Source: an uncultured Alphaproteobacteria bacterium
GTDB lineage: Bacteria > Pseudomonadota > Alphaproteobacteria > Rs-D84
Direction: 5' to 3'
DNA length: 64,000 nt
Assembly: GCA_944389465.1 (NCBI GenBank)
Contig: CALXML010000003.1
Location: 20,369-84,368, forward strand
The translations under genes and the position numbers were made by a program. Under the pieces are notes generated by a model. The model did not search any database. It saw nothing but the letters and a program-made list of their open reading frames with translations, and was not told the DNA's origin. Positions 5,175-63,139 of this stretch are shown here, piece after piece; position 1 is the first letter of the stretch; every line of letters starts with the position of its first letter.

Positions 5175-5192
5175 GTGTGGTGGGGTATTTGT

Positions 5193-6808: not shown

Positions 6809-7818
6809 ATGCAATTTTGTTGACAGAATTTGATGATATTTATAAACGCCTTGAATCTGTATTGCCAAAATTGAATAATAAAGCGATTTTGATTACTGGG
6901 GCAACGGGCTTAATAGGGTGTTATTTAGTAAAGTTTTTATTGTATTTAAATGAACGGCATAATATGGGAATTAATATATATGCCACATCAACATCATTGC
7001 AAAAGTTATATGACAGGTTTGGTTCAGAAAATGTGAATTTGCATTATTTGCAAATGGATTTATCTGTGTCGGTAAAATTTCACAGAAAATTTAATTTTGT
7101 TATTCATGCGGCAGGGGTTACCAGCCCTGATGTTTTTGCAAATAATCCTGTTGGGGTGATGCGTACCAATTTAATTGGCACAATGTCTGTGTTGGACAGT
7201 GCCATTATGGCACATGGTGGGCGATTTTTATTTATATCATCAGGTGAAATATATGGTAACAATATTACAGATGTGCCATTTGTTGAAACAGATAATGGAA
7301 ATATAAATTGTACGGTGGTGCGTTCTGGATATCCAGAATCCAAGCGTGCGTGTGAAACATTATGTATGTCGTATGAACAACAATATGGAATACACGTAAA
7401 TGTGGCACGGTTGTGTTATATTTATGGCCCAACAATAACACAGAACAGTATGCGTGTGGATGCACAATGTTTACGTGCCGCGTTAAATGGTGAAAATATT
7501 GTTCTGAATACAGCGGGCAATCAACGCAGAACGTGGTGTTATGTGGCCGATGCAACGGCTGGGATTTTACAGATTTTATTATGTGCAAAATCTGGGGCAG
7601 TGTATAATGTGGCGCATACCAAATCAATCGCAACTATTTTAGAATATGCAACAACGCTGGCAAATATAGCAGGGGTTCGGGTTTGCATATCCACCAATAT
7701 ATATGGGGGTGGAAACAGTATATTGGACGGGACAAAGTTAATTGAATTGGGCTGGCAACCACAATATGATTTACAAACAGGCCTGTTGCATACATTTAAT
7801 ATCAAAAAATCCCAGTGA
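6805..7818 (+). CDS. NAD-dependent epimerase/dehydratase-family (extended SDR) enzyme
   Basis: GATGLIGCYL Rossmann motif and YPESK catalytic motif. ATGA overlap with the upstream gene. Confidence 0.75.
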   Translation: MNAILLTEFDDIYKRLESVLPKLNNKAILITGATGLIGCYLVKFLLYLNERHNMGINIYATSTSLQKLYDRFGSENVNLHYLQMDLSVSVKFHRKFNFVIHAAGVTSPDVFANNPVGVMRTNLIGTMSVLDSAIMAHGGRFLFISSGEIYGNNITDVPFVETDNGNINCTVVRSGYPESKRACETLCMSYEQQYGIHVNVARLCYIYGPTITQNSMRVDAQCLRAALNGENIVLNTAGNQRRTWCYVADATAGILQILLCAKSGAVYNVAHTKSIATILEYATTLANIAGVRVCISTNIYGGGNSILDGTKLIELGWQPQYDLQTGLLHTFNIKKSQ

Positions 7819-18865: not shown

Positions 18866-19699
18866 ATGACTTGGACAATCTTGGTTCTGGTGATTGGTAT
18901 TCTGTTGTTCCTGTTTGGTGGTATGTTGCTGCCAAAGGGCGATGAAAAGAAACCATCCGCTGGAAAAATCGTTGCAAAAAAATGCATCACTGTAATTGCT
19001 ATTATCCTGATTTCAGGCAGTATATGCCGTTTGTATATGCCATATTACCTGACCGCTGTTAATCCAGTAATCGTTCAGGAAATGGTCAACGGTATGCAGG
19101 AACAGCAACAGGCCGAAAAAAACAAACAAATTCGTAAATTTGTCCGTTCCGAAGGCGACAAAATGATGCGTGATGCCCCAGTTTTGGGTAATCGCGATGC
19201 GAAAAAGACAATTTATGTTTGGACAGACTTCTCTTGCCCATTCTGCCGTCGTGTACATGGTGAAATTGAACGCGTATTGGCCGACCGTGACGATACACGC
19301 GTAGTTATCAAGAATTTCTCTATCCACGGGCCATTGTCTGATGCACCGGCCAAGGCTGTGATTGCTGCAAAGTTGCAAGACCCAGCAAAGGCTGCTGAAT
19401 TGACAAATATGTTGATGACACGTGAATTTTACACCCAAGAAGATTTGCAAGACCAATCCACATTGGCGGACAAGGTTGAAGCAAACGTTATGAAAATGGC
19501 CAAAGAAGCCGGCTTGGATACTGAAAAGTTGAAAGAAGACATGAACGGCGATGTTGTTGCACGTGAAATGCGTGACGTTCGTGATTTGGCACAACGCTTT
19601 GAAATCAGCGGTACACCATTCTTAATCATTGGTGAACAGGCTTTTCCGGGCGCAATCCCAGCCGACCAAATAGAGGCTGCATTGGATGAAGCAAAATAA
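18866..19699 (+). CDS. Membrane-anchored DsbA-family thiol:disulfide oxidoreductase
   Basis: N-terminal TM helix; thioredoxin-fold active site FSCPFCRRVH; C-terminal ISGTPFLIIG. Confidence 0.8.
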   Translation: MTWTILVLVIGILLFLFGGMLLPKGDEKKPSAGKIVAKKCITVIAIILISGSICRLYMPYYLTAVNPVIVQEMVNGMQEQQQAEKNKQIRKFVRSEGDKMMRDAPVLGNRDAKKTIYVWTDFSCPFCRRVHGEIERVLADRDDTRVVIKNFSIHGPLSDAPAKAVIAAKLQDPAKAAELTNMLMTREFYTQEDLQDQSTLADKVEANVMKMAKEAGLDTEKLKEDMNGDVVAREMRDVRDLAQRFEISGTPFLIIGEQAFPGAIPADQIEAALDEAK

Positions 19700-45612: not shown

Positions 45613-46134
45613 ATGCAAGAAAATAAACCAATTTTAGTTGTTGGACTGGGGAATATTGGTACACAGTATGAAAAAACGCGTCATAATGTTGGCTTTATGG
45701 CTGTGCGGCATTTTGTTCCGGACAATGCCACGTGGAAAAGCGAACATAATGCATTAACGTATTCTGAAAATATTGATGGGCGACGGATTATTTTTGCGTT
45801 ACCACAAACGTTTATGAATAACAGTGGGGCGGCTGTTGGTGCGCTGGCGCGATTTTATAAAATTCCGAATGAAAATATAATTGTTATTCATGATGATATG
45901 GATTTAAAAACAGGTGATTTACGTGAAAAAGTTGGCGGCGGCAGTGCAGGGCACAATGGAATAAAATCAATTGATGCCGCCATTGGTGCGGATTATCGCC
46001 GTATCAGAATTGGAATTGCACATCCGCGGGATTTTGATTTGCCTGTGATGCCGGCTGATTGGGTTTTGGGTAAATTTACTGATGCAGAAATGAACCGCAT
46101 AAATGCGGCCATTTCAAAAATAGTATTATTTTAA
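45613..46134 (+). CDS. pth: Peptidyl-tRNA hydrolase
   Basis: ILVVGLGNIGTQYEKTRHNVGF ... HNGIKSI motifs. Confidence 0.93.
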   Translation: MQENKPILVVGLGNIGTQYEKTRHNVGFMAVRHFVPDNATWKSEHNALTYSENIDGRRIIFALPQTFMNNSGAAVGALARFYKIPNENIIVIHDDMDLKTGDLREKVGGGSAGHNGIKSIDAAIGADYRRIRIGIAHPRDFDLPVMPADWVLGKFTDAEMNRINAAISKIVLF

Positions 46135-47363
46135 TAATATATTTTTTCAGGCAAAGTTTCTTGTGCTGGCAAATGAAAGCATCTTTTTTCGTTGCCATTA
46201 CTGGTGTCGCAAAATTGCGTGCCATTCGTTCCAGTCAGCATATAACATTTTTCTATTGACGACGCGCCAGCGTCACTGGTTGTGCCGGCTGGACAATCTT
46301 GCTGTATGCCACCGGTGCAATAATGACCCGCGTTACAAGATGAAAATACTGGTTTTAAGTTTATTGTTGTAGAGCCCAGTGGTACATCACCGTTTGCGTT
46401 TATTGTTGGGGCGGCGCACGGCGAACCGTCGCCATATGTACATTCATAATGTTGAAATATTTTACCGGCGTCTATGTTGCCTGCATATGGTAAAGCCTTG
46501 TGTCCATTGTATTCTTGGTTGTCGTCTATTGTAAAATTCTCAACATGCCAAGTGGTTGTTCCATTGGAATTATAATAATTTATTGTTATTTCTAGATTTC
46601 CCCAACATGCATACAGTCTTTTATCAGACAATAATTCATTCCAATTTTTTACGAATTTGCCACTTACATCAAAATATAATGAACTTCCGCAATCCTTTGC
46701 TTTGTCGCTGGTTGAATATCCCTTGAAAGTTTTAATCGGTGTGTTTGGTTGTAAAACACCAGATGGCAGGGAGGTTGACCATTCAGATGACGCCGCATCG
46801 GTTGCAAAACCGATACCATACTTTGCATAGGCTGTATAATTCTTATATTCTGCGTCTTCAAATGGCCAACCCAAACTTATCAATGCAGTATTTTTTAGTA
46901 ATTCCAGTTTAAAAACCTTTGGTTGGCATCTGTTTGCTTGGGTATTTCCTGTTGCACCAGATGATGCGTAATTGCCACTGCCTGTAACATCAAATGTTTG
47001 ATTACCTTCTTTTGCCTCGTATCCACTGGGACAGTCTGTGCATCCAAAATTGTTGCCTGTTGACCAATATTGATTTGCTTGGCAGGTCACGGTCCACGGA
47101 CAGGTGTTTGATGTTTGACCGGCGTATTCATCACCTGTTAAAAAGTGGGAATTTGTACCACGTGGTTTTACTGTACAGGATTTGCATTTTTCGCCGGCAG
47201 TACTGTTATAAGTGCCCGCAGTGCATAAATCGCAACCCAATAAGCCCGTTTGTTCACAGCCAGCGGGACATTTGCCATCAGTTTTTGTGCATTCGGTGAC
47301 CGCCGCCATTGCGGTCGCGTTAAAAATACACAGGCATAATATTGTGAAAAATATCCGTTTCAT
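46131..47363 (-). CDS. Secreted cysteine-rich protein with ephrin-receptor-like / GCC2_GCC3-type repeats (410 aa)
   Basis: Signal peptide MKRIFFTILCLCIFNATAMA. Repeats such as CDLCTAGTYNSTAGEKCKSC, CTDCPSGYEA and CPAGTTSDAGASSIEKC. Convergent 4-nt overlap with pth. Confidence 0.75.
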   Translation of the reverse strand: MKRIFFTILCLCIFNATAMAAVTECTKTDGKCPAGCEQTGLLGCDLCTAGTYNSTAGEKCKSCTVKPRGTNSHFLTGDEYAGQTSNTCPWTVTCQANQYWSTGNNFGCTDCPSGYEAKEGNQTFDVTGSGNYASSGATGNTQANRCQPKVFKLELLKNTALISLGWPFEDAEYKNYTAYAKYGIGFATDAASSEWSTSLPSGVLQPNTPIKTFKGYSTSDKAKDCGSSLYFDVSGKFVKNWNELLSDKRLYACWGNLEITINYYNSNGTTTWHVENFTIDDNQEYNGHKALPYAGNIDAGKIFQHYECTYGDGSPCAAPTINANGDVPLGSTTINLKPVFSSCNAGHYCTGGIQQDCPAGTTSDAGASSIEKCYMLTGTNGTQFCDTSNGNEKRCFHLPAQETLPEKIYY

Positions 47364-47430: not shown

Positions 47431-47457
47431 AAAATCCGGCATAATGCCGGATTTTTT
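47431..47457. terminator. Bidirectional terminator
   Basis: AAAA-TCCGGCA-taa-TGCCGGA-T6. Confidence 0.8.
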
Positions 47458-47917
47458 AATATTGATAGTCACTTAATGGACGATATTTATTAATAGTAAA
47501 TCCCTTGCTGACAAACCATAAACTGTCTTGGGGCACTTTGGATGCCGCGCCGGGGTAAAACTCAAAATCACCCTTGCCCCTAAATTTTGGGGAGTATTTA
47601 AATAGTGGTTCTAGTCCGTTTTGACGTAAAGCAACGATAGTATTTGCAACATATGTGTACCATTCCCCTTCCGGAATCAGATATATTGTTCTGACAGTTG
47701 GGTCGTCTGCATAACTTTTTGCTATATCGGATATGAAAAATTGTTCATCTGGGGTGATGTTTATAATGGCAGAATAATCATCGCAATTAAAATGCAGTTC
47801 CACATCACGCAACGGTTCATCTTTCTCGCACCCGCCCATAAATAATGATGCACCGGCAATGCCCAACATCGGCAGGATTCTTTTTATTTTATATGGCACT
47901 ATTTTTTTAAAGCGCAT
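47456..47917 (-). CDS. Probable lipoprotein, unknown function
   Basis: Start at MRFKKIVPYKIKRILPMLGIAGASLFMGGC (lipobox-like); RBS AAGGGGG. The listed ORF start lies upstream across a terminator. Confidence 0.6.
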   Translation of the reverse strand: MRFKKIVPYKIKRILPMLGIAGASLFMGGCEKDEPLRDVELHFNCDDYSAIINITPDEQFFISDIAKSYADDPTVRTIYLIPEGEWYTYVANTIVALRQNGLEPLFKYSPKFRGKGDFEFYPGAASKVPQDSLWFVSKGFTINKYRPLSDYQY

Positions 47918-47975
47918 TTTTTGCCCCCTTTGGTTTGGCGTTATGTGTTTATTCGTTTCTTCACCAATAAAACAC

Positions 47976-48004
47976 AAAAAGTCCGGAAAAATTTCCGGAC
48001 TTTT
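47976..48004 (-). terminator. Intrinsic terminator after the small ORF
   Basis: GTCCGGAAA-aattt-CCGGAC with flanking A and T runs. Confidence 0.75.
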
Positions 48005-48155
48005 ATCCCTTATATGACACAAAATCATCATCTGCGGCATTTGATTCTGGTGAAAATTCATTCCCCATTATCCCCCCCACGTGACATCCGTCACATGGTG
48101 GCCAATCGGGAATATCCCCAAAATCAATATAACAAAGATTTTTATTCAAAATCAT
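48003..48155 (-). CDS. Possible small protein (50 aa) with a CDGCH motif
   Basis: ATG at 48155 (MILNKNLCYIDFGDIPDWPPCDGCHVGG...). Own promoter TTGACA (48231-48226), 17-nt spacer, TATATT. A terminator directly follows the stop. No homolog recognised. Confidence 0.35.
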   Translation of the reverse strand: MILNKNLCYIDFGDIPDWPPCDGCHVGGIMGNEFSPESNAADDDFVSYKG

Positions 48156-48249
48156 TTTATTATACCGCCTGATACATTCTGTATCGGTTATTTGTTCTTT
48201 TATAAATATATGACAAAATATACGTATTGTCAAATTTTTGCGTTACCAC

Positions 48250-51200
48250 TTATCCGCCACCACTGTATTCAATAATCCAGTTTGTTGGGGTGTCACAGGC
48301 AGTACCGTTGTTTGTTGCCCAGCCCCAATTACCCTTACCGTCATTGTATCCATTGGTACATGTGGACTGGTCGCCGCGGTAAAAACTGGTCGGTATTTGG
48401 GTGATGGCGTCCACGTTATCATATTGTGGTGATATGTATGTACCACCGTTCGTTTTCTTGATAACGACGATATAATTCCCGTTACAGTTCAGGGTTTTGC
48501 CCGATGGGAATGTAGAGGTTTCGTCACTCGCATTGCCCATTGTACCGTTACAGAACAGGTATGCAATGTCAGCAGGCCCGTAATATGTATTATTGGATGG
48601 CGGTTTAAATGCCACAACGAATTTTGCGGTATCCGGCAGGCACAGACCGCCGTTTTGGTCAATTTTTCCATCTACTTCGGTGCTGTCGGCCGGTATATTA
48701 CTGGTCGTGTTTTCGTTACCCCAGTATCCGGATGTAGCATTCCAATTAACCCCTTGGATGCTGGACTGTATTTTACCCAAACAACAATTTCCAAAAGAGT
48801 CGCGTGCGCCAGCGACTGGGTCATTGTCGGTCGGTGTACGACAACAGTTATTGGAATCTGTTGTCGTTGGCACACGCCAGTAAGTATTGGTTGGGCAGGT
48901 CAGACCATCGTCGGATACGTCAGTACGTGAAACGCAGTATGAAGTTTGCTTGTTTGAGTCCCATTGTGATATATACCCCGGACCGCATGATGTGTCACGA
49001 CAACTGTCAACTTCGTCATCTGTGCCGGTGTTTTTGGCAAACCATGACAATAATGTTTCTGTATCTTCGTCAACTGGCATTTTGATTTGGTTGTGCGAAT
49101 CTGCCGCGGACAAATTGGTTACTGGGTGTGCCTCGCAATTGCCCCATACTTTTTCAGCCAAACGGCATATTTGGCATTCTGGGGTGTTAACCTTGGTATA
49201 TGTAATGTCGTTTGCAAGGGTGCCGTCGTCGTTGGTGGCAAACTGCATACCGCAATCATCTGCACATATATCGTATATGCAGTTGGCATCGTCTGTTGTT
49301 GTGCAAGATGTGCCGGACCAGTTTGTTTGCAATTCGTCGTTTGTAATGTCGGTGTTTGTGTCACCGTATAGCAGTTCATAGAATGAACCATTATCGTCAA
49401 TTGCGCCGTCCGCAATTTGCAATTCTGTGATTTTATTAATTGCATCTGTGCCGGCGTCAGCAACGCATTCCAAAACTTCGTCCCAACAGGCTGTGCGGTT
49501 AATAATGGCCTTTCTGTTAACGGATGTTTGAATATCTTCGCACAGGCCAAAGTTACCAGAAATTGATTTACATGATTGGATGATACAGTTACGGCCAACC
49601 TCGCGACAGGTTTGCATAATTGTGTCATATGTTTTGTCGGTGGCGATTTCTGTCATACCCTCGTTCCAGATGTCGCCACTGTCAACAGTGTTCAACAATG
49701 CGGTACAGGCAGACTGAACCTCGGAACACATTTGTTTTACGGTTTTGTCGGCCTGTACACCAAAAATTGATAATGCGCGGGCATCAAAATCTTCCAGCGA
49801 TTCAGCGGCATCAGATAAACACTGTGTCGTCAGGGTTGTACAACTTTGGCGAACTTCTTCCAGTTTGCTTTCTTGGGCCAATTTGATTTGTGCCAACGCG
49901 TCTTCTAGGAACGCGTCCCATACGCTGTCGGCGATGTCTTGGCAATTTTCAGTGGCGGATTCCAAATATTTCTTTTTGGAATTTAAGTATGATACGAATT
50001 TCGCATTTCCGGGGGCACCCGTCCATGTTTGATTGGAATCAGGACGGGTGATTAAATTACCCAAATTGGCCAAGTTTGATGTTAATATCGCTTCGCCGGT
50101 GGATGGGTCAATGTATTGGCCACTGATATCCAAGCATTGTTGTAAATCATCCCCACAAACGGATGTGTCGGTTAACATATCCAGCATTTTTTTCTTGCAC
50201 GTTAAAATGTCGTCGGAATTATTTTTCTGGTATGTGTCCAAACGGGATATGTCCAACAGAGCACTGCCTTCGCGGATTTTTTCGCGGGCCAAATCCTGTT
50301 GGGTTTGGTATGCCTTGGCAACGGTGTTACAATCCTGTTCAATTGCCATTTGGTATCCACTTTCTATGATGTCCAATTCGTCAGGGGTGCATACCTCCAA
50401 CGCCATTTCGCGGCATACCGGCAGGGCGGCCGAATATAATTCTGTGCCGGATTTTGTTGTGGTGGATGCGCCGGCCAATGAGTCAACCGTGTCAAAGGCA
50501 GCCGCTGCATTTAATGATAATGATATTGGCGACAAATCAGTATCAAAAGAACTGGTGTCAAATGTCGCGTTTAATTTTTCTGAAATGTCATCCAATAATT
50601 CCTTGGACGATGATGTATCCTCTTGCTGAAAGGCCAGTTCGCCCTCGGTCGCTTGGAATATAGACTCGGCATCTTCTTTGTCCATATTTACCGTCAGCAG
50701 GCGTTGGTTAAAGTCCAATAATTTATCCTCTACGGTGGCCAATTGTTCCTTGATATCATCAAATTCGTTTACCCGTGACGAGCATGCACAACGCTTTAAT
50801 TGGCTGTCCTTGTTGGCGCAAAATTCATCCATACAACTGTAATATACTTCGCGGCATTTGGTATAGTCGCGGTTTATTATTTCCTCGGCCGACAGGGTGC
50901 CTGCGCGTGATACACGGGCGGATTGTGCCACGCCAGTGCGACGGGCGGTTGTTGTTGTATGCGTTTGTGGTGTTGTGGCGGCACGTGAAACAGATGCCGC
51001 GCGTGAAATTGTGGCAGTGGCACTGCGCGCGCCATTCGCTGATGTATTTGTATCTGTGCGGTTTATGTTCGCAGTGCGTGAAACAGTTGATACGGCGTTA
51101 CGTGATACGGCCGTGCGTGACGGCGTTGATACGACGGATGATTTAGATACAGTGGCACGTGGTAAAACGTTTGTTGCACTTCTGGTTGTGGTGGATTGAT

Positions 51201-51513
51201 TTGATGTTTCCGTTGATGTGCGTGTGCCACCATCGCGCACAACAACGTTTGCGCGTGACGATGTATTTGATTGTGTACGATTACGCACAGATTGGCCCGA
51301 TTGATTCAGGTTTGTGGAACGTGATATGCCGGATGATTCAATTTTCTGTGTGTCAGATGTTTGGACCGATTGTTCGCGTGATACAGTTGTTGTTGCACCA
51401 CGGCGTGTTGCGGCACGCGCAATGGTATCCGCATCATCAGCAGATGCAATGTTTGGCGCGCTGAATACCAGTAATGCCAGACATCCCGCAAAGATTTGTT
51501 TGATTCCTTTCAT
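48250..51513 (-). CDS. Giant secreted Cys-rich protein, CMDQFC family (paralog 4, 1087 aa)
   Basis: Signal peptide, then a ~190 aa S/T/R/N-rich region, then the core KCREVYYSCMDEFC (50818-50856) with RCACSS shortly after. Shared helical Cys-pair segments. The C-terminal ~350 aa is Cys-dense. Confidence 0.8.
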   Translation of the reverse strand: MKGIKQIFAGCLALLVFSAPNIASADDADTIARAATRRGATTTVSREQSVQTSDTQKIESSGISRSTNLNQSGQSVRNRTQSNTSSRANVVVRDGGTRTSTETSNQSTTTRSATNVLPRATVSKSSVVSTPSRTAVSRNAVSTVSRTANINRTDTNTSANGARSATATISRAASVSRAATTPQTHTTTTARRTGVAQSARVSRAGTLSAEEIINRDYTKCREVYYSCMDEFCANKDSQLKRCACSSRVNEFDDIKEQLATVEDKLLDFNQRLLTVNMDKEDAESIFQATEGELAFQQEDTSSSKELLDDISEKLNATFDTSSFDTDLSPISLSLNAAAAFDTVDSLAGASTTTKSGTELYSAALPVCREMALEVCTPDELDIIESGYQMAIEQDCNTVAKAYQTQQDLAREKIREGSALLDISRLDTYQKNNSDDILTCKKKMLDMLTDTSVCGDDLQQCLDISGQYIDPSTGEAILTSNLANLGNLITRPDSNQTWTGAPGNAKFVSYLNSKKKYLESATENCQDIADSVWDAFLEDALAQIKLAQESKLEEVRQSCTTLTTQCLSDAAESLEDFDARALSIFGVQADKTVKQMCSEVQSACTALLNTVDSGDIWNEGMTEIATDKTYDTIMQTCREVGRNCIIQSCKSISGNFGLCEDIQTSVNRKAIINRTACWDEVLECVADAGTDAINKITELQIADGAIDDNGSFYELLYGDTNTDITNDELQTNWSGTSCTTTDDANCIYDICADDCGMQFATNDDGTLANDITYTKVNTPECQICRLAEKVWGNCEAHPVTNLSAADSHNQIKMPVDEDTETLLSWFAKNTGTDDEVDSCRDTSCGPGYISQWDSNKQTSYCVSRTDVSDDGLTCPTNTYWRVPTTTDSNNCCRTPTDNDPVAGARDSFGNCCLGKIQSSIQGVNWNATSGYWGNENTTSNIPADSTEVDGKIDQNGGLCLPDTAKFVVAFKPPSNNTYYGPADIAYLFCNGTMGNASDETSTFPSGKTLNCNGNYIVVIKKTNGGTYISPQYDNVDAITQIPTSFYRGDQSTCTNGYNDGKGNWGWATNNGTACDTPTNWIIEYSGGG

Positions 51514-51598: not shown

Positions 51599-51682
51599 TG
51601 GTGCGGATAGGGGGACTTGAACCCCCAAGGTGTTAACCACAGCATCCTTAGTGCTGCGCGTTTACCGTTTCGCCATATCCGC
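51599..51682 (-). tRNA. tRNA-Leu, class II, with anticodon loop CTAAGGA (anticodon AAG, A34 encoded)
   Basis: The reverse complement folds as GCGGATA/TATCCGC acceptor, anticodon stem CAGCA/TGCTG, loop C-T-A-A-G-G-A (U33, G37), variable arm GGT-TAAC-ACC, T-arm GGGGG-TTCAAGT-CCCCC, and an encoded CCA. Confidence 0.75.
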
Positions 51683-51880
51683 ACGATGTACAACACAACG
51701 TTCCGCAACAGGGCGGCACTTCGTAGTCGCCATATCCGCACGATGTACAACACAACGTTCCGCAACAGGGCGACACTTCGTAGTCGCCATATCCGCATTA
51801 TGTACCATATTGTGGTTTGCGACAAGGCGGCACTTCGCTGCGCTGCGTAGTCGCCATATCCGCATATCGCATATGCGTAA
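51671..51880. repeat. Tandem repeat (57, 57, 67 bp and a partial unit), each unit containing the 5' end of tRNA-Leu(AAG)
   Basis: Units start at 51671, 51728, 51785 and 51852. All four begin CGCCATATCCGCA; the first two extend it to CGCCATATCCGCAC, which is the complement of tRNA positions 1-12 plus flank. Units 1 and 2 differ at one base. Confidence 0.85.
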
Positions 51881-51967: not shown

Positions 51968-53440
51968 ATGAGAAAAGTTTCTTTGTTGGCTTTAATGCTG
52001 ATTCCGTTTGCTGCAAATGCGGCCGGTACTTATTATTCTGGGTATACTAATTCTTATCAATCGCCGTATTCCACACGGACGTATGCGCAACGGCAAAGTG
52101 GTTATAATTACAGCAGACAGGGTAATTATACAACACCGTCTTATTCCAGTACGCGTTATAACACTGCAAATGCCGGTGCAACAAATACCAGTGCACAAAG
52201 TGGTACACAACAGGCGGTGGCCAGTTCAAAAAAAACTGGTTTCTGGTTGGATGCGGGCATAACGCATCAGATGGCACAATGGCAATTTGAAATGGCCCAA
52301 TCTGGCAGTATTTTAAGTTATGACAATGTTGGGTGGAATGTGTTGGATGTCAGTGCCGGTTATGCTTTTAATGCCGGAAATACAACGATGCAAATTGACG
52401 CGGGTCTGCAATATGGTATGCAGTGGGGTGAATCCGCCATGTATGACGATGATATTTCCAATGGTGGATTTTTGGTCACAACATGGGTAGAGGCCGGCGA
52501 TGAAGACAATGTTATTGGTGACCAGATTGGTCACGCCATGTCAATTGGTACCAGTAAAGGCGGAAATATGTTGGGCTTTAACGTTGGTTTTGGTCTGACT
52601 GATATTTTCAAAATTGGGAATGTTACAATAACGCCGTCTGTTGGGTATCGGTATTTGAAATATAATTTAACGACTGAAAATAATTTTGGTTTGTCTGTTG
52701 ATACAACGGCCTGTTTCCAGATAGAGGGCAGTGATGAAATTCAATGTGACCCTGCAATCGTGGTTAATTTGTCCGATGGCAAGCAGCAAATTATTTGGCG
52801 TGATGATATAAATAACAGTATGGACGTGCCAAGCAATGCAACCAGTATAAATACCGGCAGTACATATTATTATCATCAACCGGGGGAAAGTCATTCGTAT
52901 GAAACAACATGGGCGGGCCCTTATATTGCGCTGGATATGGATTATTTAATTAATCAAAATAATGCGGTAAATGGCCGGATTGAATTGGGATTTCCTGCGT
53001 ATACGTCTGTTGGTGACCAGCCATATCGTTTTGATTGGGCGCATCCAAAATCTGTAGAGGATGAAGCCGGTATGTTTGGCGCGTTCCATTTTGGTTTGGG
53101 TGCAAATTGGACAACGGCGATAACAGATTCTGTTGCATTGTCGGTTGGTTTAACATATGATTATTACAGTGTCAGCGGTGCGGACGCAAAAACGTATCTG
53201 AATATGGATTACTATAATACATGGTATGATATGATTTTGGATGCGTGGAAGACCGAGTATCCAGATAATACCGAAGATTATATGTTGGGCCAGATAGAGG
53301 GTGTAGCCGGCGACCCAACGGCGATTAACATTAAAAATCTGGAATCACAGTGTCCGGGGGGCGTTTGCACAACCGACAGTGAAATAGAATCTTTCTATAA
53401 ATCACTGGGGATACGTGTTGGTATTAATGCAAAGTTTTAG
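51968..53440 (+). CDS. Outer-membrane beta-barrel protein with a Y/S/Q/N-rich N-terminal region (490 aa)
   Basis: Signal peptide ...FAANA; low-complexity tract YYSGYTNSYQSPYSTRTYAQRQSGYNYS...; barrel-like strands; terminal ...GINAKF. Confidence 0.65.
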   Translation: MRKVSLLALMLIPFAANAAGTYYSGYTNSYQSPYSTRTYAQRQSGYNYSRQGNYTTPSYSSTRYNTANAGATNTSAQSGTQQAVASSKKTGFWLDAGITHQMAQWQFEMAQSGSILSYDNVGWNVLDVSAGYAFNAGNTTMQIDAGLQYGMQWGESAMYDDDISNGGFLVTTWVEAGDEDNVIGDQIGHAMSIGTSKGGNMLGFNVGFGLTDIFKIGNVTITPSVGYRYLKYNLTTENNFGLSVDTTACFQIEGSDEIQCDPAIVVNLSDGKQQIIWRDDINNSMDVPSNATSINTGSTYYYHQPGESHSYETTWAGPYIALDMDYLINQNNAVNGRIELGFPAYTSVGDQPYRFDWAHPKSVEDEAGMFGAFHFGLGANWTTAITDSVALSVGLTYDYYSVSGADAKTYLNMDYYNTWYDMILDAWKTEYPDNTEDYMLGQIEGVAGDPTAINIKNLESQCPGGVCTTDSEIESFYKSLGIRVGINAKF

Positions 53441-54954: not shown

Positions 54955-57366
54955 TTACTTTACAACACTGAAATTTATACTGGTTGCCATGCCCATTTCG
55001 TCCATTATACGAACGGTGTGGTCGCCCAGTTTTACCGGATGCATTAATGTTTGGCCAGATAAGGTTGTGCCAATCATATCATTATCCAGAAACCAAAATA
55101 TTTTGGCATCCGTCATATCAGATACTGCACGAAATGCAATTTGCTGAACGGATTTATCTGAAATTATAACAGTACGTGTGTCCGCCATGGGGGATGTAAT
55201 GATTGGTGGGGTTCTGGTGGGGGCGATTTCATCCAAATCGCATCCTGCCATAAATGGGGGTGGGGTGTTACGTTTAATGCCAGCACGACGAAACATATCC
55301 AGATATTCTGCGTCCCAAAATTCATATACTGCCATATGTGTTGTTGCGGGGTCGTTTGTGCATGCGCGCAGGCCTGTTTTGTTATCAATTGGTATTGCGC
55401 GATAAACAGACGATGTTTCAATTGGCGATTTTGCAGGAATAAAATATGCGTATGTTGTTTTAGGACAATATTTACCGGCCAATCCGCCGACTTCGTCACA
55501 CATTTCTATTTCCGATATATTCATATCGTCGCGCAGGAAATTATTATTTTTTATTGGCGTGGCGCGTGTTGCATAATATTTTTCAACAGTGCGGGCCAAC
55601 GAAAAATATATTGGTGCAGCGGTGCGTGCACCACTGAATGCGTTATTTGGTGTGCCATCAAAATTGCCAACCCATACGATTAATACGAAATCACCAAATA
55701 TACCCGCCGTCCATGCATCACGGAAAGATGAAGACGTTCCTGTTTTCCAATAGTGGCGCAGGGTTGAATTTTGTTCTTTGGCAAAAGGTATGTTTTTTGT
55801 TGGTGTGGATTGATGGGCCAACATATCCAGTGTTATAAAGAATGCCTCGGGCGTCAGAATTTGTTGACCGGCTGATTGTTCGGACTGAATTTCTGTTTTT
55901 ATATCGTATTTCATACCCAGATTTGCCATTGTTGTATAAATGCCGGCCAATTCAAGCATTGATACCTCGGCCCCGCCCAGTGCGATAGAAATACCGTAAT
56001 AATCGGGGGATTTCAGATTTGATACGCCGATGTCAGATAAAATTTTATAAAAATTTTTAGTGCCTATTTTGCGCAATAAATTTATTGCAGGGATATTGCG
56101 TGATAATGTTAATGCATTGCGCGCCAATATCGGGCCAAAAAATTCACTGTCGGAATTTTCAGGGGCGTATACACCGAAATTGATTTTAGAATCTTTTAAC
56201 AATGTCATACTGTGGATATATCCCATATCAACGGCCGTGGCATATATTAATGGTTTCAGTGTTGATGCGGGACTGCGACGTGCGCGCACACCGTCGTTTT
56301 CACCAAAAATTGTTTTATCAAAATAGTCCGCTGAACCGATATAAGCCAATGTTTCCATTGTTTTGTAATTAACCAATATGGCGGCTGCATTATTTATGCC
56401 ATATGCGCGGCGGTTGTTTATTTCCTGTGTCAGGGTGTGCATCATTGCGTTTTGCAAATTTATATCCAGTGTGGTTGTAACCAGCGACGAGTGCGCCCCC
56501 ATATCATTCCAATAATTATCTTGATTTGATATTTCATAATTTACAAAGTGGGGCGCATTAAATGGCAAATCGCGTGTTGTTTGTACATGTAATGGCATTT
56601 CTGATAATTGCAGCAATTCTGTATCAGATGGATTTTCTGTAACCCAGCGGCGGACTAAATCACTGCGCATATTCATTATATTTTGCAGACCTGTTTCGGT
56701 ATTCAGACCGCGTTTTATGGGATTTTGCGGTACAGTTGCCAATGTTATTGATTCTATTTTATTTAATTCAGATGCCGGTTTATTAAAGTATATTAATGCC
56801 GCCGCACCAATACTTTCAATGTTGCCACCGTATGGTGCCAGATTCAGGTATGCTTCCAGAATATCGTTTTTAGAATAAAACATATCCAGATAAATTGCCG
56901 CGGCAATTTGTAACAGTTTGCCCCCAATTTGTTGGGTGTTTAAATTGTATTTCAGGCGTGCAACCTGCATTGTGATTGTTGATGCGCCAGCGGGGTGGGG
57001 TGTGCCAATAAAATAGTTAATTGTTGCGCGGGCCAGTGATATCGGATTCACGCCAAAGTGATATTTGAAATATTTATCTTCGTATAAAATGGTTGCACGT
57101 TGAATATATTCACTGATTTCAGACAGGGGGGTATATAACCTATATTTATCATCGGCGGATAATGTTATACGCAGCAATTGCCCATTGCGGTCAAAATAGG
57201 CACGGCCAAAATGAACATCGTTTAATAATGGTGGACAACAGAATAACTTGATTGTCGTATATAATAAAATCAATATCAGTAAAATTCCGTATAAAATCCT
57301 GTGGCGGCGCAAATGCGTCGCCACTGGTTTGAATGTTTGATAAATTTTACTGTTTTGTTGACTCAT
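54955..57366 (-). CDS. pbpC: Penicillin-binding protein 1C (bifunctional transglycosylase / transpeptidase-like)
   Basis: N-terminal TM helix; GT51 motifs (EDKYFKYHFGVNP, ...GASTITMQVAR); SxxK (ASTLKP) and KTGT; a C-terminal PBP1C-type extra domain; pairing with the A2M gene. Confidence 0.88.
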   Translation of the reverse strand: MSQQNSKIYQTFKPVATHLRRHRILYGILLILILLYTTIKLFCCPPLLNDVHFGRAYFDRNGQLLRITLSADDKYRLYTPLSEISEYIQRATILYEDKYFKYHFGVNPISLARATINYFIGTPHPAGASTITMQVARLKYNLNTQQIGGKLLQIAAAIYLDMFYSKNDILEAYLNLAPYGGNIESIGAAALIYFNKPASELNKIESITLATVPQNPIKRGLNTETGLQNIMNMRSDLVRRWVTENPSDTELLQLSEMPLHVQTTRDLPFNAPHFVNYEISNQDNYWNDMGAHSSLVTTTLDINLQNAMMHTLTQEINNRRAYGINNAAAILVNYKTMETLAYIGSADYFDKTIFGENDGVRARRSPASTLKPLIYATAVDMGYIHSMTLLKDSKINFGVYAPENSDSEFFGPILARNALTLSRNIPAINLLRKIGTKNFYKILSDIGVSNLKSPDYYGISIALGGAEVSMLELAGIYTTMANLGMKYDIKTEIQSEQSAGQQILTPEAFFITLDMLAHQSTPTKNIPFAKEQNSTLRHYWKTGTSSSFRDAWTAGIFGDFVLIVWVGNFDGTPNNAFSGARTAAPIYFSLARTVEKYYATRATPIKNNNFLRDDMNISEIEMCDEVGGLAGKYCPKTTYAYFIPAKSPIETSSVYRAIPIDNKTGLRACTNDPATTHMAVYEFWDAEYLDMFRRAGIKRNTPPPFMAGCDLDEIAPTRTPPIITSPMADTRTVIISDKSVQQIAFRAVSDMTDAKIFWFLDNDMIGTTLSGQTLMHPVKLGDHTVRIMDEMGMATSINFSVVK

Positions 57367-60300
57367 TTATTACTGTAAATGTATCGGTGTCGCCGGTCGC
57401 AGAAATTTGTGGATTGTACATAGATTCTGCATGAATGGCCGGAACTATAAATTGCCCAGCGGTGCCGACCTGTGCAGTATATGTAAACACACTGTCGTCA
57501 CGTGTCAGGTTGGCGTATATTATTATTCTGTCGTCCAGAACTGTTGCGAAATTCATATCACCGGTAATGGAATCCGTATTTGGAATAAATCCACAAGGTA
57601 ATAAATCTGTGATTGCAACATTTTCTGCAAAATCCGTGTCGGATTTTGTGCGGGCAAATATTTTGACCGTAACTGTGTCGCCCAGATTTGCGGTTGTTAT
57701 TCTGTTGCCGGTGGCATCATAATATTCGCGTACAATATCCAGCCCGTTTGATTGTTCGTGTGTTTCGGTTGGGTATCCCTGTTGCAGGAATGTATAATAT
57801 AACATATTATCGTTGCTGCAGTTTTTGCACTGTATATCTATACGGGTTGCGTCCGCGGGTATTGTTGTGCTGATGCCAGATTTATTTTCTGTGGCGGTTA
57901 TGGGTGTTTTTGAATCAGTTGTTATTTGAATGTCTGATAAATCTGAATCTGATTTTATATCAGACAGGGCCATAATTATCGTGGCCGATGGATAAGAACT
58001 GTATTGTCCAGACTGAATATATTTTGTGATAGTGGATGATTCAGTTGGGCTTAATGCAGAAAAGTATTTGTTATGCAAATAATAATACATTGCATCATTT
58101 GATACATTGTTATTAAACATTCCCGCATATTCAAATTTATCAGATTTAGATGTTTGGTATTTTGAAATTAAATCGCGTGCCAAATCGTCCTGTTTCATAA
58201 TTTTGTATGCCGATGCAATGTATGCGCCCATTAATGAATGTTGCCAATTTTTTATATTTTCGTTGGCGTATTGGGTGAAAGAATCTATATAACTGGTGGT
58301 TACATAATCATTGCTGGAAATAACATATATTGCATATGCCATTGCAGATGCGTACGCGTCATCGGTAATTGTACCGCCAACAAATGTGCGCAGGTAATCA
58401 ATCGCGCGCGATAACATTTCGTTTGGAACGTTAAAGCCTGATTCGCGGGCGATTGTCAAAAATTGCGCAACGTATGCTGTTAAATAAGCGGTGTTTATAT
58501 CGTTTTGATTGTTGTATGATGTTGAACCGCCCGTCCACATTGCGAATGAACCATCATAATTTTGGCGATTGCGCAGTGTGTTAATGGTGTCTGATATTTG
58601 TTTATTGGCACTGTTGAAATTTACACCAATAATTTCACTGTCTGATATTACCGCATATGGCATTGCGCGTGATATCAATTGTTCTGTGCATGGATATTCA
58701 TAATGTGCCAAATATTCAAACAGGGGTAATATTAATGCGCCGGCATTACGTGTGATATATAATGTACGTGTTGCATATTCCGGATACATATCAATTTTAA
58801 AATCTGATATTTTGGTGTTTTTTGAATCTAATACATCTGAAATTATATTCGTTTCAAATACAGATGCCGGCCGAACAGACAATGTTGTATGATTCGTACG
58901 TGATACGTTTGGGGTATTATCAGATGTTAATTGTGCATTCAAAATAAATTCTGCATTCCCCAATGTTGATGTGGCGTGCGCATCAAATGTGAACAGTTTT
59001 TCTGTATCCTGTGGAATTACTGATTGGGCAGATGTGTCCCCAGTAATTTTAATTCCGTCATTTGTTGTGGTGGATATATTAACTGTTGCATTTGCACCAC
59101 TGTTTTCAGTCAAATTTGTTAATACTGAATTTATTGTAAATTTATCGTTTGGTGCGGCAAACAATGGTGCAGATGTTGAAATAACAATTGGCGATTGTAC
59201 CAATGTTTTTGTATCTGCACTGCCAATGGCATTGGTGTTTGCAGCAACAGCAAACACACTGATTTCACCATTAAAATATTCAGGAATATCAAATGTTATG
59301 GTGTTTGTTTTTCCCGCGGTGGCGGTCAGTATTTGTGAATAGAATGCAACAGGGGTCTGTGTTTTGCGGCCAAATGGGTTACGTAAAATTGTGTTTAATC
59401 CGCCGTCACCAGCGAAATCGCCGCCGCCTGTTTTGGCGTATTGCTGCAGGATATTATATTCTGGTAACAACAGGGATAAAATTTGATATGTGTTTACCTG
59501 CAGTGCGGCTTTCTGGAAAAAGTGTGCCAACGGATTAGGAATTTGGTATTTCGCAACCTGTAATATCCCCGAATCCACGGCAAAAATCATTATTCTGGCA
59601 TTTTTGTCAGTTGTGTATTTGATTGACAGTTTATTATCGCGCACAATATCTGGAACATCCAGTTTTACTGATATATTACGTGCAGATAAATCCGCAGAAA
59701 ATGGTGCAACAGCATATGCGTATGGTGTGGTAAATATATCGGGACTGTTAATGTTTCTGACAAAAGATACGTTGACGTATCCCGTACCTTCAAATCCATC
59801 AGGTACAGTTATGTGTTGTACAGTTGTTGTGGATTTTGCATTAAACCATTTGTATGCATATACTTTATCGCGTTCAATTGTTATTAATCCTGCGCCAGTA
59901 TACGGGGTGGTTATGCTGATTTCTATGTCGTCACCGGCGGCATATTCATCTGAATCCAGTTTGATTTGTAAATCTGCATTTGTATCAGTTTGCAATGTGG
60001 TGTTTGCGGTGCCGGAAATAAAGTATTGCGCGCTGGATAAAATTTTATCTGATGCGTCCAGTATTTGCACGATATATGTTCCACCGTTGGTTGTATCCAG
60101 TGTTATACTTGTGCCGTTTTCTGAAATATTTATTTGACGCTGGGATATAATTTTATCGTGTGTGGTTGTTTGATATTTATAGAAATTATTATAATCTTTG
60201 ACCAATGTGGTTTGGTTTTCACGCCGCATTACACGCAGTGTTAAATTGTCAATGGCAATTGCGTTTGCAGTGTGGTCAACGGCAATAAAGTTTATTTTAC

Positions 60301-63139
60301 GGTTGGTGTCGCGCTTTATATAAGATAAATCGCCATCTGCACGCCAACCTATTAAATATTTTGCATCTGATGCGCGTGCAGTAATGTTTGTTTGTACACT
60401 TTTGCCGCCATTTGATTCAAATCCATGCACATTAAGAACCAATTTATATGTGCCCGATGGAATTGGGGTATCAAATTTTATGTCCAGTGTGGCGTTGCCG
60501 GTGGCGTCTGTGTATTCCGTTGGTAATTCAACAGAATAAGTTTGGGTGCTGGTTGCCATATTATCAGACAGTCCCGTGCCGGATATAAAGTTTGGTGTAA
60601 ATTCATATTCACTGAATTTATTAAAAGAATACTGGGTTGGTATTAATGTTGCAGTGGCCGATATTTTATTGTTCGTTGCCGGTGTGCCAAATAAATTACG
60701 TAATGAAACGTGGGCCGTTAAATTATCTGGTGCAATCCATCCGTTGTCAGATGCGCCGGAAATATTGGCAGATATTTTTAATGTGTCTGGGACAAATTCT
60801 TGGACATCAAAGGTTGTCGTGCCCAGCATATCAGATAATTTATCATTTGATGTTAATGAATATAAATATGCGTTCCAACTGCCCAATGCGGCATCTGTTG
60901 GTATATTATATGTTACATCAAACATCCCATCTGCTGTCAGTGAAAATGTTTTTTCCAATGCCGTGTGGCCACGTGAATCGTATACTTGTAATCTGACTGG
61001 GATACCGGCCAATGATTTAAATGATTTATTTTTGACTATGCCGGCCAGTGTTATTGTTTCATTTGGGCGGTATATGCCACGGTCTGAAAATATAAATGCG
61101 TTTAATGGTGTTGATGCATATGAATATACCCCATCAATGTCAAATTTAGAATATTCAACCTGTTGGTTATATGAATTATATGGAATAAATGATACGTCAT
61201 TGCCACGACGTGCAACAATGGCAACCGGTTCACGTGCGTTGTTATATTCAGACCATGGCAAAGACGGAATTTCTGCATGTCCGTCTGTATCAGTGCGACC
61301 GGCCCAGACAGCGTTTCCATTACGTCCCAATACAGATATTTCAACATCTGATGCGGGGGTGCCGGTGCTTAAATTTGATATAAATACATCAGATGAATTG
61401 TCTGTGTTTACTTTGCGTATAATGCCCATATCTGTTAATAAAATCAGGCGTTTGTCATTAAATTCTGTTGCGCTTTCAGATGTGCCCGTTTGGATTATAA
61501 ATATTCCAGTGTTGTCGCCATATGTTCTGTCCAGATAGTCACCTAAATCAACGGATGCATAATTGGCGCGTTTGATGGATGGGTTTACAAAAGAAATTTT
61601 CTTTTGAAATACAACCGACATATCATATACGCCAAATGCCCATGACTTAAATTCCATATTTGATGCAAACACATTATATGTTTGTGATATTAAGTGATTT
61701 ATTTCAGATGATTTTACTTTGTATAAATTTACATATGCCGTATCAACACCACCATGGGCAACAATGCCCAGTTCACGATTCCCCGCCAAAGATAATAATG
61801 CGCCAGTGCCTGCAATTTCAACAGATTTTGTTGGATATGGCACGCGCATAACGGATGCAAAGCCATTTTTCATTGTGAAATCGTTTGCTGATTGTGCGCC
61901 GGATTTTAAATCTGCATATATATAACGTACATCACCATCAGATACGTCATAAGAGATTGCATATTGATACATGCCGTTTGGGGCGGATATGTCCTGTTGC
62001 TGGATGGTTAATGTTTCTGATTTTGATAAAACTGTGTCTGTTATTTCGTCGTTGGCCCATTTGTGAATGGTGTTGTTTTCCTGTTCTGTATCTGTGCGAT
62101 ATTTGGGTAATAAATACAGTGTTAAATATTTTGTCCAATCTGTATTATTTGCAGCGGCAGATGTGGTATTTATTAATATCAACTGTTGTGCATTGCCGCC
62201 GGTATCGGTGGCAATTGTTGTTTCAACAGATGATATCTTGAATATATTATCTGCTGATTCAATTGTTAAATTTCCTGTTATTTTTTCTGTTTTTGAATCG
62301 CCATACAGGGCAGGGATATGATTTAATTTCAGTCTGATTACCTGTGCCGTATTTGTTATCTTTATCGGTTCTGAAATTATAAACGCCGTGCGATGAAATT
62401 TATCAAATCTTACATCAAAATTCAGTTTATCGTCGTCCAGTTTTACAGATACTTTATCTGCAAAATTTTCCGTATTAATTTCGTAATCAAAAGATATTAC
62501 CGCAATACCAATAACTGATTGTTTATCATTTTGCGCGGGGTATAAATTAAAGTTTTCCAATTTGCCGGTTATGTCGGGTGTTTTAAAAGTTATGCGTTTT
62601 GTATCTGGGCTAACATCTGGGTTAAAAATTTCAGGGTTTATTTTTACCGTAAATTTGGTTCCCGCCGGCCATGCGTCATCGGGGGTAAATGTAAGTGTAT
62701 CATTACCATATAAATACCAATTTCCACGTACAAATGGTGTGATTTTTATATTTTTTGCCACATCATTATTGGTTAAATTCATTTTAAAAGCCGGCGCATA
62801 ATCACCAGATTCCACATTATATGAAATTGTCAGGTTGGATGGTGATTGCAAATTTCGTGCATTATTTGGTTCTGGCAAACTGGTTGGGGTTACAAAAAAC
62901 ATATTGTTGTTATCTGTAAATTGCGCAGATGTTGGGGCAGATACAGTTGTTGTTAATTGTGTTTTACCGTTGTGATGTGTGCCAATAATAAAAAATGCCA
63001 GTATAATCAATGCAATTGTTACAATTGCCGCACCAATCCAAAACAGTTTTTTATGTGATGATTTTTGCAGCCATTTACAACAAGATTTACGTGTTTTATG
63101 TGACTGTTTCTGTTTTTTTGATTGTTGTTTGTGCTGCAT
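57347..63139 (-). CDS. Bacterial alpha-2-macroglobulin (YfhM-like), 1930 aa, TM-anchored
   Basis: Thioester motif CTEQ (YEYPCTEQLISR). Giant multi-domain size. The stop overlaps the pbpC start by 20 nt. The N-terminus is a basic stretch plus one TM helix rather than a lipobox. Confidence 0.88.
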   Translation of the reverse strand: MQHKQQSKKQKQSHKTRKSCCKWLQKSSHKKLFWIGAAIVTIALIILAFFIIGTHHNGKTQLTTTVSAPTSAQFTDNNNMFFVTPTSLPEPNNARNLQSPSNLTISYNVESGDYAPAFKMNLTNNDVAKNIKITPFVRGNWYLYGNDTLTFTPDDAWPAGTKFTVKINPEIFNPDVSPDTKRITFKTPDITGKLENFNLYPAQNDKQSVIGIAVISFDYEINTENFADKVSVKLDDDKLNFDVRFDKFHRTAFIISEPIKITNTAQVIRLKLNHIPALYGDSKTEKITGNLTIESADNIFKISSVETTIATDTGGNAQQLILINTTSAAANNTDWTKYLTLYLLPKYRTDTEQENNTIHKWANDEITDTVLSKSETLTIQQQDISAPNGMYQYAISYDVSDGDVRYIYADLKSGAQSANDFTMKNGFASVMRVPYPTKSVEIAGTGALLSLAGNRELGIVAHGGVDTAYVNLYKVKSSEINHLISQTYNVFASNMEFKSWAFGVYDMSVVFQKKISFVNPSIKRANYASVDLGDYLDRTYGDNTGIFIIQTGTSESATEFNDKRLILLTDMGIIRKVNTDNSSDVFISNLSTGTPASDVEISVLGRNGNAVWAGRTDTDGHAEIPSLPWSEYNNAREPVAIVARRGNDVSFIPYNSYNQQVEYSKFDIDGVYSYASTPLNAFIFSDRGIYRPNETITLAGIVKNKSFKSLAGIPVRLQVYDSRGHTALEKTFSLTADGMFDVTYNIPTDAALGSWNAYLYSLTSNDKLSDMLGTTTFDVQEFVPDTLKISANISGASDNGWIAPDNLTAHVSLRNLFGTPATNNKISATATLIPTQYSFNKFSEYEFTPNFISGTGLSDNMATSTQTYSVELPTEYTDATGNATLDIKFDTPIPSGTYKLVLNVHGFESNGGKSVQTNITARASDAKYLIGWRADGDLSYIKRDTNRKINFIAVDHTANAIAIDNLTLRVMRRENQTTLVKDYNNFYKYQTTTHDKIISQRQINISENGTSITLDTTNGGTYIVQILDASDKILSSAQYFISGTANTTLQTDTNADLQIKLDSDEYAAGDDIEISITTPYTGAGLITIERDKVYAYKWFNAKSTTTVQHITVPDGFEGTGYVNVSFVRNINSPDIFTTPYAYAVAPFSADLSARNISVKLDVPDIVRDNKLSIKYTTDKNARIMIFAVDSGILQVAKYQIPNPLAHFFQKAALQVNTYQILSLLLPEYNILQQYAKTGGGDFAGDGGLNTILRNPFGRKTQTPVAFYSQILTATAGKTNTITFDIPEYFNGEISVFAVAANTNAIGSADTKTLVQSPIVISTSAPLFAAPNDKFTINSVLTNLTENSGANATVNISTTTNDGIKITGDTSAQSVIPQDTEKLFTFDAHATSTLGNAEFILNAQLTSDNTPNVSRTNHTTLSVRPASVFETNIISDVLDSKNTKISDFKIDMYPEYATRTLYITRNAGALILPLFEYLAHYEYPCTEQLISRAMPYAVISDSEIIGVNFNSANKQISDTINTLRNRQNYDGSFAMWTGGSTSYNNQNDINTAYLTAYVAQFLTIARESGFNVPNEMLSRAIDYLRTFVGGTITDDAYASAMAYAIYVISSNDYVTTSYIDSFTQYANENIKNWQHSLMGAYIASAYKIMKQDDLARDLISKYQTSKSDKFEYAGMFNNNVSNDAMYYYLHNKYFSALSPTESSTITKYIQSGQYSSYPSATIIMALSDIKSDSDLSDIQITTDSKTPITATENKSGISTTIPADATRIDIQCKNCSNDNMLYYTFLQQGYPTETHEQSNGLDIVREYYDATGNRITTANLGDTVTVKIFARTKSDTDFAENVAITDLLPCGFIPNTDSITGDMNFATVLDDRIIIYANLTRDDSVFTYTAQVGTAGQFIVPAIHAESMYNPQISATGDTDTFTVINESTKQ

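Follow-up and report, generated by a model that had tools for sequence, protein, structure and literature searches.

Does the long C-terminal part of a large exported Cys-rich protein act as an interchangeable head and, if it does, where does the exchange take place? The question is raised by P0001, an open reading frame (ORF) of 1087 amino acids (aa) at positions 48250-51513, minus strand, of a 64,000-nucleotide (nt) stretch (the window) from contig CALXML010000003.1 (GenBank assembly GCA_944389465.1) of an uncultured alphaproteobacterium, Candidatus (Ca.) Enterousia, order Rs-D84. The ORF call was borne out, and the protein shows the features by which its family, named here CMDxFC, is defined: a signal peptide, the signature CxxxYxxCMDxFC...RCxCS and a core of helices in which about 20 Cys residues are invariant. 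Its zones were drawn from a comparison with 68 orthologues and from two AlphaFold runs, one of the full-length protein and the other of the C-terminus alone, and comprise, after the signal peptide, a disordered tract, the core, a variable linker (V1), a conserved island and a head (Table 1).

The real modularity of P0001 was found at the level of alleles, the head being exchanged between strains of the same species. Across eight genomes the core tracks PolA (core/PolA identities of 86/87, 84/79, 76/76, 74/80, 62/71, 60/64 and 53/61%), and the head is 25-45% identical in the same genomes; in the closest of them, the head shows 38% identity and all the neighbouring genes, porins included, 80-88%. 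Cores at least 95% identical were accompanied by heads merely 37-85% identical in 23 of 2346 orthologue pairs, and in four pairs the heads shared 40-48% even though core identity reached 99-100% and tract identity 95-99%. The breakpoints are sharp, the 5' ones falling at the end of the core or in or beside the island. P0029 and P0030, for instance, are identical through approximately residue 835 and then fall to 10-30% with insertions and deletions (indels), and P0034 and P0050 are identical to about residue 710, variable over 711-777, around 95% identical in the island and 10-35% identical from there on. At the DNA level, contigs from separate samples agree at 98% as far as codon 711 or 866, past which the head is unalignable, and identity is regained exactly at Pth (96-98.6%); the 3' limit of the replaced stretch lies at or past the P0001 stop codon. 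At the protein level, the head alleles can all be aligned over their full length, with 30-50% identity and a conserved scaffold of Cys, in which Cys, Gly, Pro, Trp and Tyr positions are invariant. These sequences show that the head, often together with the linker, has been replaced by homologous recombination between near-identical strains. The swapping was detected in sister species of the same genus and not in the species of the window, since only one other sampled strain of the latter is available, and it is 99% identical throughout.

The ratio of non-synonymous to synonymous substitution rates (dN/dS, or omega) was computed for the two pairs with unsaturated heads. For P0029/P0040 it was 1.36 in the head and 0.16 in the core, with dS values of 0.10 and 0.02, respectively, and for P0077/P0078 it was 1.30 in the head and 0.05 in the core, with dS values of 0.15 and 0.02; the proportions of non-synonymous and synonymous changes differed between head and core in both pairs (Fisher p 0.002 and 0.0003). 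The dN/dS of the core ranges from 0.03 to 0.16, the core being under purifying selection as strong as that on PolA, and the dS of the head is 5-8 times that of the core. We read the overall pattern as import of old divergent alleles by homologous recombination plus diversifying selection on a fixed Cys scaffold.

With moderate confidence, we read P0001 as an exported, disulfide-stapled stalk that carries a recombination-replaced head under diversifying selection, probably a surface module for recognition or adhesion. The protein would be exported through Sec, and its 42 mature Cys residues would most likely be paired as disulfides with the aid of the DsbA-family thioredoxin-fold protein (277 aa) encoded in the window at 18866-19699 (+), 2.4 kb from a cluster of three paralogues of P0001; the even Cys count, the invariant Cys positions and the presence of this DsbA are what suggest the stapling. 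The disordered N-terminal tail, studded with Arg, could tether the protein to anionic polymers of the envelope or of a partner cell, and would be followed by a rigid helical core, by the conserved island as a junction and by the beta-rich head. Export past the periplasm is presumed, and a secretin is encoded in the genome. Exposed outside, the head might be the binding module that determines specificity for a partner cell or a host ligand or, equivalently, an epitope or receptor on the surface against which phages or host immunity exert selection. Several points weigh against this reading. The surface location is deduced solely from the pattern of selection and from the envelope genes nearby, and P0001 has no anchor motif, beta-barrel or known secretion signal past Sec. 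Neither DsbB nor VKOR is encoded in the genome, a respiratory chain is missing from the organism, and conditions in the gut are reducing. No binding fold was found for the head with Foldseek against PDB and BFVD, its omega is not significantly above 1 as a domain average (binomial p around 0.18 in each pair), and the allele swapping was seen in sister species only.

Some of these points would suit a scaffold of the periplasmic envelope, in which function would reside in the core, and the head, under little constraint, would drift and recombine as an appendage with no part in recognition. Such a scaffold would account for a core conserved like an essential gene and for the lack of a detected anchor or outer-membrane translocation signal, and a head omega around 1.3, being not significantly above 1, would on its own be compatible with near-neutral evolution. 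We nevertheless consider it unlikely, as the head is intact and confidently folded in nearly all orthologues across genera, keeps invariant Cys, Gly, Pro and aromatic positions, and evolves faster than the neighbouring porins. Moreover, the excess of dS in the head and the persistence of old, deeply diverged alleles within species argue for a maintained polymorphism rather than for drift.

The region downstream of P0001 was also analyzed. A near-consensus promoter and a leader are located directly after the P0001 stop codon, followed by genes for a lipoprotein and for a secreted Cys-rich protein (Table 1), and because of this promoter and leader the cassette is a transcription unit apart from P0001. 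Over 316 nt, the leader stretch (47918-48233) shares 99.4% identity with the region upstream of another such cassette of this genome (C1:122230-122545), which adjoins no member of the CMDxFC family; no further copy was detected by BLAST, and Rfam gave no match at gathering thresholds. The ORF call for the lipoprotein (201 aa, 47456-48061) was over-extended into the leader, the true start being M49 at 47917. Between P0001 and Pth, some strains have 1-3 tandem copies of this lipoprotein of about 150 aa, with varying divergence; the lipoprotein family counts 1-4 copies per genome in the genus, is represented at further loci too and is missing in two other genera. The secreted protein has 340-410 aa and 22-25 Cys depending on the strain, and is 29-45% identical between strains that are approximately 98% identical elsewhere. 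The copies of the two cassettes (46131-47363, minus strand, and C1:123541-124851) have around 410-436 aa and 24 Cys, share 35% identity, and show conserved ends (85% identical DNA at the 3' end) around a divergent middle that is hypervariable among strains. No relation of this protein to the P0001 head was detected with hhalign (probability of at most 1%). Three of the eight genomes (L001, L002 and L005) lack the cassette beside an intact P0001 orthologue, and there the gene abuts Pth. Its absence in these genomes and in two genera, together with its own promoter, makes the cassette an optional and independent neighbour rather than an obligate partner.

This independence weakens the notion that P0001 belongs to a polymorphic toxin or bacteriocin-like system, where the conserved N-terminal part would deliver a variable C-terminal effector and the downstream lipoproteins would be immunity proteins. 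There is a likeness to CdiA-CT/CdiI, MafB/MafI and Rhs systems: P0001 has a conserved body that changes abruptly, after a conserved motif block, into a sharply demarcated variable C-terminus, 1-3 small and variable tandem lipoprotein genes lie directly downstream, and the whole stretch up to Pth co-varies between strains. In those systems, however, the C-termini are unrelated toxin folds and an immunity gene is constantly present downstream, and neither was found here. All the head alleles are homologous and belong to one fold family with one Cys scaffold, no toxin or immunity family was matched in Pfam, NCBIfam or PADLOC, and the genes downstream are optional, have their own transcription and occur also away from any family member. 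We thus regard a toxin-immunity system as improbable.

Returning to the stalk and its replaceable head, we compared the C-terminus of P0001 with those of its paralogues, for which the sequence-only reading had proposed modular heads on a common stalk. In BLASTP, P0001 resembles each full-length paralogue up to about residue 645 and no further, and the tails are common only within sub-pairs, P0002 with C7 and P0003 with P0004. A hidden Markov model (HMM) that covered residues 721-1087 and derived from 118 orthologues matched in the genome only P0001 itself (next best E 0.2), and hhalign of the P0001 C-terminus against each paralogue tail and against the Cys-rich neighbour gave probabilities of at most 1%. 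Homology of the C-termini across paralogues was therefore looked for at three sensitivities and not detected in any of them, so the part of the proposal that speaks of different tails on a common core stands. It does not extend to a domain shuffled among scaffolds. The C-terminal profile matched 113 clusters among 1.84 billion representative proteins, and all the long matches examined carry a P0001-type core, the short ones reading as truncated gene calls; as far as these sequences tell, the head is not a shuffled domain and is known only on the P0001 orthologue group. Two short proteins that match the head profile, P0141 and P0217, have unrelated N-termini (epimerase-like VLITGHSGFKGSW and DivIVA-like, respectively), and are probably chimeric assemblies or gene calls. 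A similarity between the end of P0002 (CERLGGTW...) and the island (CRLAEKVWGNCE...) was considered and dropped, as it received no support from HMM or hhalign.

The same reading had taken the last 350 aa or so as a single unit packed with Cys in patterns resembling cystine knots or variant-specific surface proteins (VSPs), and neither the unit nor the patterns held. The segment is composed of the linker (691-780), the island (781-846) and the head (847-1087), and the Cys density of the C-terminus, 5.4%, is not notably higher than the 4.6% of the core. It contains one CxxC and two CC doublets, has no internal repeat (alignment score of 44 versus 43 ± 6 in shuffled sequences), and shows no fold match to cystine-knot, epidermal growth factor (EGF), furin-like or VSP structures: in Foldseek against PDB the best match of the C-terminal model had an E of 0.045 and a template modelling (TM) score of 0.11, with no knot, EGF or furin-like module among the matches. 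A VSP- or knot-like repeat array, as one of several heads interchanged among paralogues, could be evoked by the Cys content, by the differing tails of the paralogues and by the CxxC or EGF-like runs present in some other paralogues and in the Cys-rich neighbour. Without internal repeats, without a knot, EGF or VSP match in folds or in Pfam, and with the head on no other scaffold among the 1.84 billion representatives, we find it very hard to sustain. Like the VSPs of Giardia, P0001 is exported, rich in Cys and encoded by a gut anaerobe, but it has one CxxC instead of many, and neither repeats nor a C-terminal transmembrane segment or CRGKA tail.

Programmed variation within the genome, by gene conversion from silent cassettes (of the pilE/pilS or vlsE type) or by a diversity-generating retroelement, would also place hypervariability at the end of an exported protein, and is highly improbable given that no second copy or fragment of the head was found by tblastn, HMM or blastn in a genome 99% complete, although in 22 contigs with collapsed repeats possible (only the expressed copy was recovered by tblastn and HMM), that no second DNA copy of any part of P0001 that could serve as a retroelement template exists in it, reverse transcriptase not having been searched for, and that the differences include indels and all types of substitutions.

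Table 1. Coordinates in the window of the zones of P0001 and of the elements of the downstream cassette.
Feature	Coordinates	Strand	Basis or characteristics
Sec signal peptide, residues 1-25	51439..51513	(-)	MKGIKQIFAGCLALLVFSAPNIASA / DD (slash, cleavage); Ala-x-Ala cleavage site; no lipobox
Disordered Thr/Ser/Ala/Arg-rich tract, residues 26-214	50872..51438	(-)	Composition and predicted local distance difference test (pLDDT)
All-helical Cys-rich core, residues 215-690	49444..50871	(-)	CxxxYxxCMDxFC...RCxCS; 22 Cys; part common to the family
Variable, gappy linker V1, residues 691-780	49174..49443	(-)	Identity to orthologues 0.19-0.41, many gaps
Conserved island, residues 781-846	48976..49173	(-)	C-x-x-CRLAEKVWGNCE ... 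SHNxIK ... TLLSWFAKNT ... DSCRDTSCGPG
Beta-rich, Cys-scaffolded head, residues 847-1087	48253..48975	(-)	11 Cys; conserved terminal P-x-x-W-x-I-x-Y
Promoter TTGACA-17-TATATT (48233-48205), leader of about 290 nt, strong terminator hairpin (48004-47977)	47918..48233	(-)	Promoter/terminator scan
Lipoprotein, about 153 aa	47456..47917	(-)	Lipobox LGIAGASLFMGGC; alignment shows shared start
Secreted protein, 410 aa, 24 Cys, second cassette gene	46131..47363	(-)	No Pfam match

The zones of P0001 differ in conservation and in predicted structure. The N-terminus is kept among orthologues, with a helix predicted at residues 2-17. The tract that follows it is composed of 20% Thr, 17% Ser, 13% Ala and 12% Arg, with 23 Arg, 2 Lys, 11 Asp plus Glu and no Cys, which gives a net charge of about +14 in which Arg far exceeds Lys, and is predicted to be disordered because pLDDT stays below 35 over residues 19-212. 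The description of this segment of about 190 aa as Arg/Ser/Thr-rich, positive and disordered was therefore accurate, in contrast with the quasi-repeats of SR(T/S)A(V/N)S type reported in it, which do not go beyond what compositional bias would give (internal alignment score of 67 versus 55 ± 7 in shuffles). It is 30-43% identical to the tracts of the orthologues, yet around 10 Arg positions are at least 90% conserved. In the core, with long helices predicted at 377-431, 528-576 and 613-652, the Cys residues are invariant across paralogues and orthologues, and identity to the latter is 0.6-0.9. The linker is only 25-40% identical between P0034 and P0050, whose cores are identical. Identity rises to around 0.63 in the island, whose pLDDT is high in the full-length model and low when the C-terminus is folded alone, so it probably packs onto the core. 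The head is modelled mostly as beta strands with pLDDT around 90, and is 21-43% identical to those of the 68 orthologues. The protein ends in ...WIIEYSGGG with no hydrophobic segment. The terminal W-x-I-x-Y was considered as a beta-signal of outer-membrane proteins (OMPs) and set aside, since there is no match to a barrel fold, Cys residues abound in the domain and the Tyr is in many cases not the last residue.

The family to which P0001 belongs is restricted to the lineage and made up of exported Cys-rich proteins; P0001 represents one of its branches, as the syntenic orthologue present in single copy. In a six-frame motif scan, C-M-D-x-F-C was found in exactly four ORFs of the window, P0001 and three others of 848, 726 and 835 aa located at 8.7-16.5 kb, so that P0001 is indeed the fourth and largest paralogue there, as initially described; genome-wide this numbering does not apply, as the 0.95-Mb genome encodes at least 10-12 members, occupying roughly 3% of it. 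P0001 matches its paralogues with BLAST E-values from 1e-11 to 1e-67, and an Arg/Ser/Thr/Ala tract lies between signal peptide and core in 8 of 10 paralogues. The family was detected in 124 of 151 genomes of the order. All genomes of its own taxonomic family (10 genera) carry at least 8-10 copies each, including one clear P0001 orthologue, and Ca. Enterousia and its sister genera have about 10 or more members per genome of 0.8-1.0 Mb; the other families of the order produced just two weak matches. The gene order PolA-OMP-Pth-(optional cassette)-P0001-Pom-like porin-p203-DUF3078-PbpC is identical in five of the eight genomes, those whose stretch covers it, and the other three keep parts of it, the synteny spanning at least four genera. 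In the paralogues P0003 and P0004 (11713-16461, plus strand), a hydrophobic stretch that is Gly-rich or forms a Gly zipper precedes a C-terminal C-E-D-I-(N/V)-M common to both, an end that may serve as membrane anchor or sorting signal and that P0001 does not have.

No relatives of this family were recognized. Scans of the four window paralogues against Pfam and NCBIfam yielded no model above noise, PADLOC returned nothing for P0001 and its paralogues, a sequence-profile search of PDB with P0001 gave 0 matches, and Foldseek searches with the full P0001 model and with the head found no match with E below 0.04 in PDB or BFVD. Among the papers in the collection searched, none ties Rs-D84 to Cys-rich proteins. 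The CMDxFC family is undescribed, and on the basis of these profiles and models its core and head have no known sequence or fold relative.

P0001 was also compared with known systems that share parts of its architecture. TraN (PF06986) is the Cys-rich outer-membrane protein for mating-pair stabilisation of F-type conjugation, and its variable tip sets which surface protein of the partner cell is bound. P0001 resembles it in its large size, its export and some 20 or more conserved Cys, and in a conserved scaffold that carries an allelic, variable beta-rich tip. Unlike TraN, P0001 is encoded on the chromosome at a syntenic position next to housekeeping and OMP genes, its core is all-helical and it has an Arg-rich disordered tail of 190 aa. 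The PF06986 profile did not match P0001 at E up to 1, TraN was not among the Foldseek matches, and no genes of type IV secretion systems (T4SS) were present among the window ORFs scanned, so an identity as TraN or T4SS component received no support in this window.

The chlamydial OmcB (PF03504) is a Cys-rich envelope protein of the outer-membrane complex, with a basic, heparin-binding N-terminal region. P0001 is comparable as an envelope protein that is exported, rich in Cys and basic in its N-terminal region, and it stands in a setting with chlamydial-flavoured neighbours (a Pmp-repeat autotransporter and a Pom-like porin). In contrast to OmcB, it has a helical core, belongs to a family of multiple paralogues and bears a head swapped between strains, which OmcB lacks; none of the four paralogues in the window matched PF03504 (Chlam_OMP6) with an E of 1 or less, and there was no fold match. 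The allele groups of type IV pilins, such as the pilA groups of Pseudomonas aeruginosa, are balanced surface-antigen loci with linked accessory genes. The parallel with P0001 lies in a conserved N-terminal part, a divergent disulfide-containing C-terminal part, allele-linked neighbouring genes and old alleles exchanged by recombination between conserved flanks, despite P0001 being unrelated, about ten times larger and devoid of a pilin signal.

The window is bacterial chromosome, with PolA, Pth, several OMP genes and LicD/IspD-type genes for surface polymers. It starts with the Pmp-repeat autotransporter (Chlam_PMP and autotransporter beta-domain; 1-4191, plus strand), and the porin that matches the Protochlamydia 'Pom' family is encoded at 51968-53440 (+); together with the Cys-rich proteins, they make a chlamydia-like envelope gene set in an alphaproteobacterium. 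Genes for LicD, an IspD-like cytidylyltransferase and an NAD-dependent epimerase/dehydratase stand in a row at 5175-7818 (+), which suggests decoration of a surface polymer of the CDP-ribitol or phosphocholine type. At 54955-63139 (-), a gene for a bacterial alpha-2-macroglobulin (A2M) of 1930 aa overlaps that of a PbpC-type class A penicillin-binding protein, and this classic A2M-PbpC pair is kept in a genome of less than 1 Mb. Upstream of a tRNA-Leu(aag) gene (51599-51682, minus strand) there is a 57-bp tandem repeat (51670-51805, 2.4 copies, 96% match) that overlaps and repeats the 5' end of the tRNA (GCGGATATGGCGA...), and that may be the scar of an integration/excision or of a duplication at the tRNA.

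Members of Rs-D84 have genomes of less than 1 Mb, with no respiration, biosynthesis or standard transporters, and are presumed to depend on a partner (PMC12306168). These bacteria, Enterousia among them, are widespread and uncultured inhabitants of the gut, and given their lack of biosynthesis and standard transporters, how they contact and exploit other cells is a central question. A more specific proposal, which we offer as tentative and rather doubtful, is that the head is the determinant of partner specificity of an obligately partner-dependent gut alphaproteobacterium, a receptor-binding cassette exchanged by recombination and kept polymorphic by frequency-dependent selection. If this were true, the head would decide to which cell or host ligand the bacterium attaches, as a cellular counterpart of the receptor-binding protein of a phage or of the TraN tip, and in some strains it would act jointly with the adjacent leader-controlled cassette of lipoprotein and Cys-rich protein; the ten or so conserved paralogues would jointly form a disulfide-stapled attachment apparatus of a fold absent from solved structures.

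The exchange within species of one defined head of 240 aa, with dN/dS near 1.3, marks the part that faces outside selection, and provides a domain that can be expressed for binding screens and an allele marker to be correlated with partner taxa across metagenomes. Should the head be merely a target of phages or of the immune system, it would still be a hypervariable surface locus useful for strain typing. For the lineage as a whole, the CMDxFC family is a prime candidate for the defining envelope or attachment machinery, as it takes up such a share of the genome, has a core conserved to the same degree as PolA and has no known homologue or fold.

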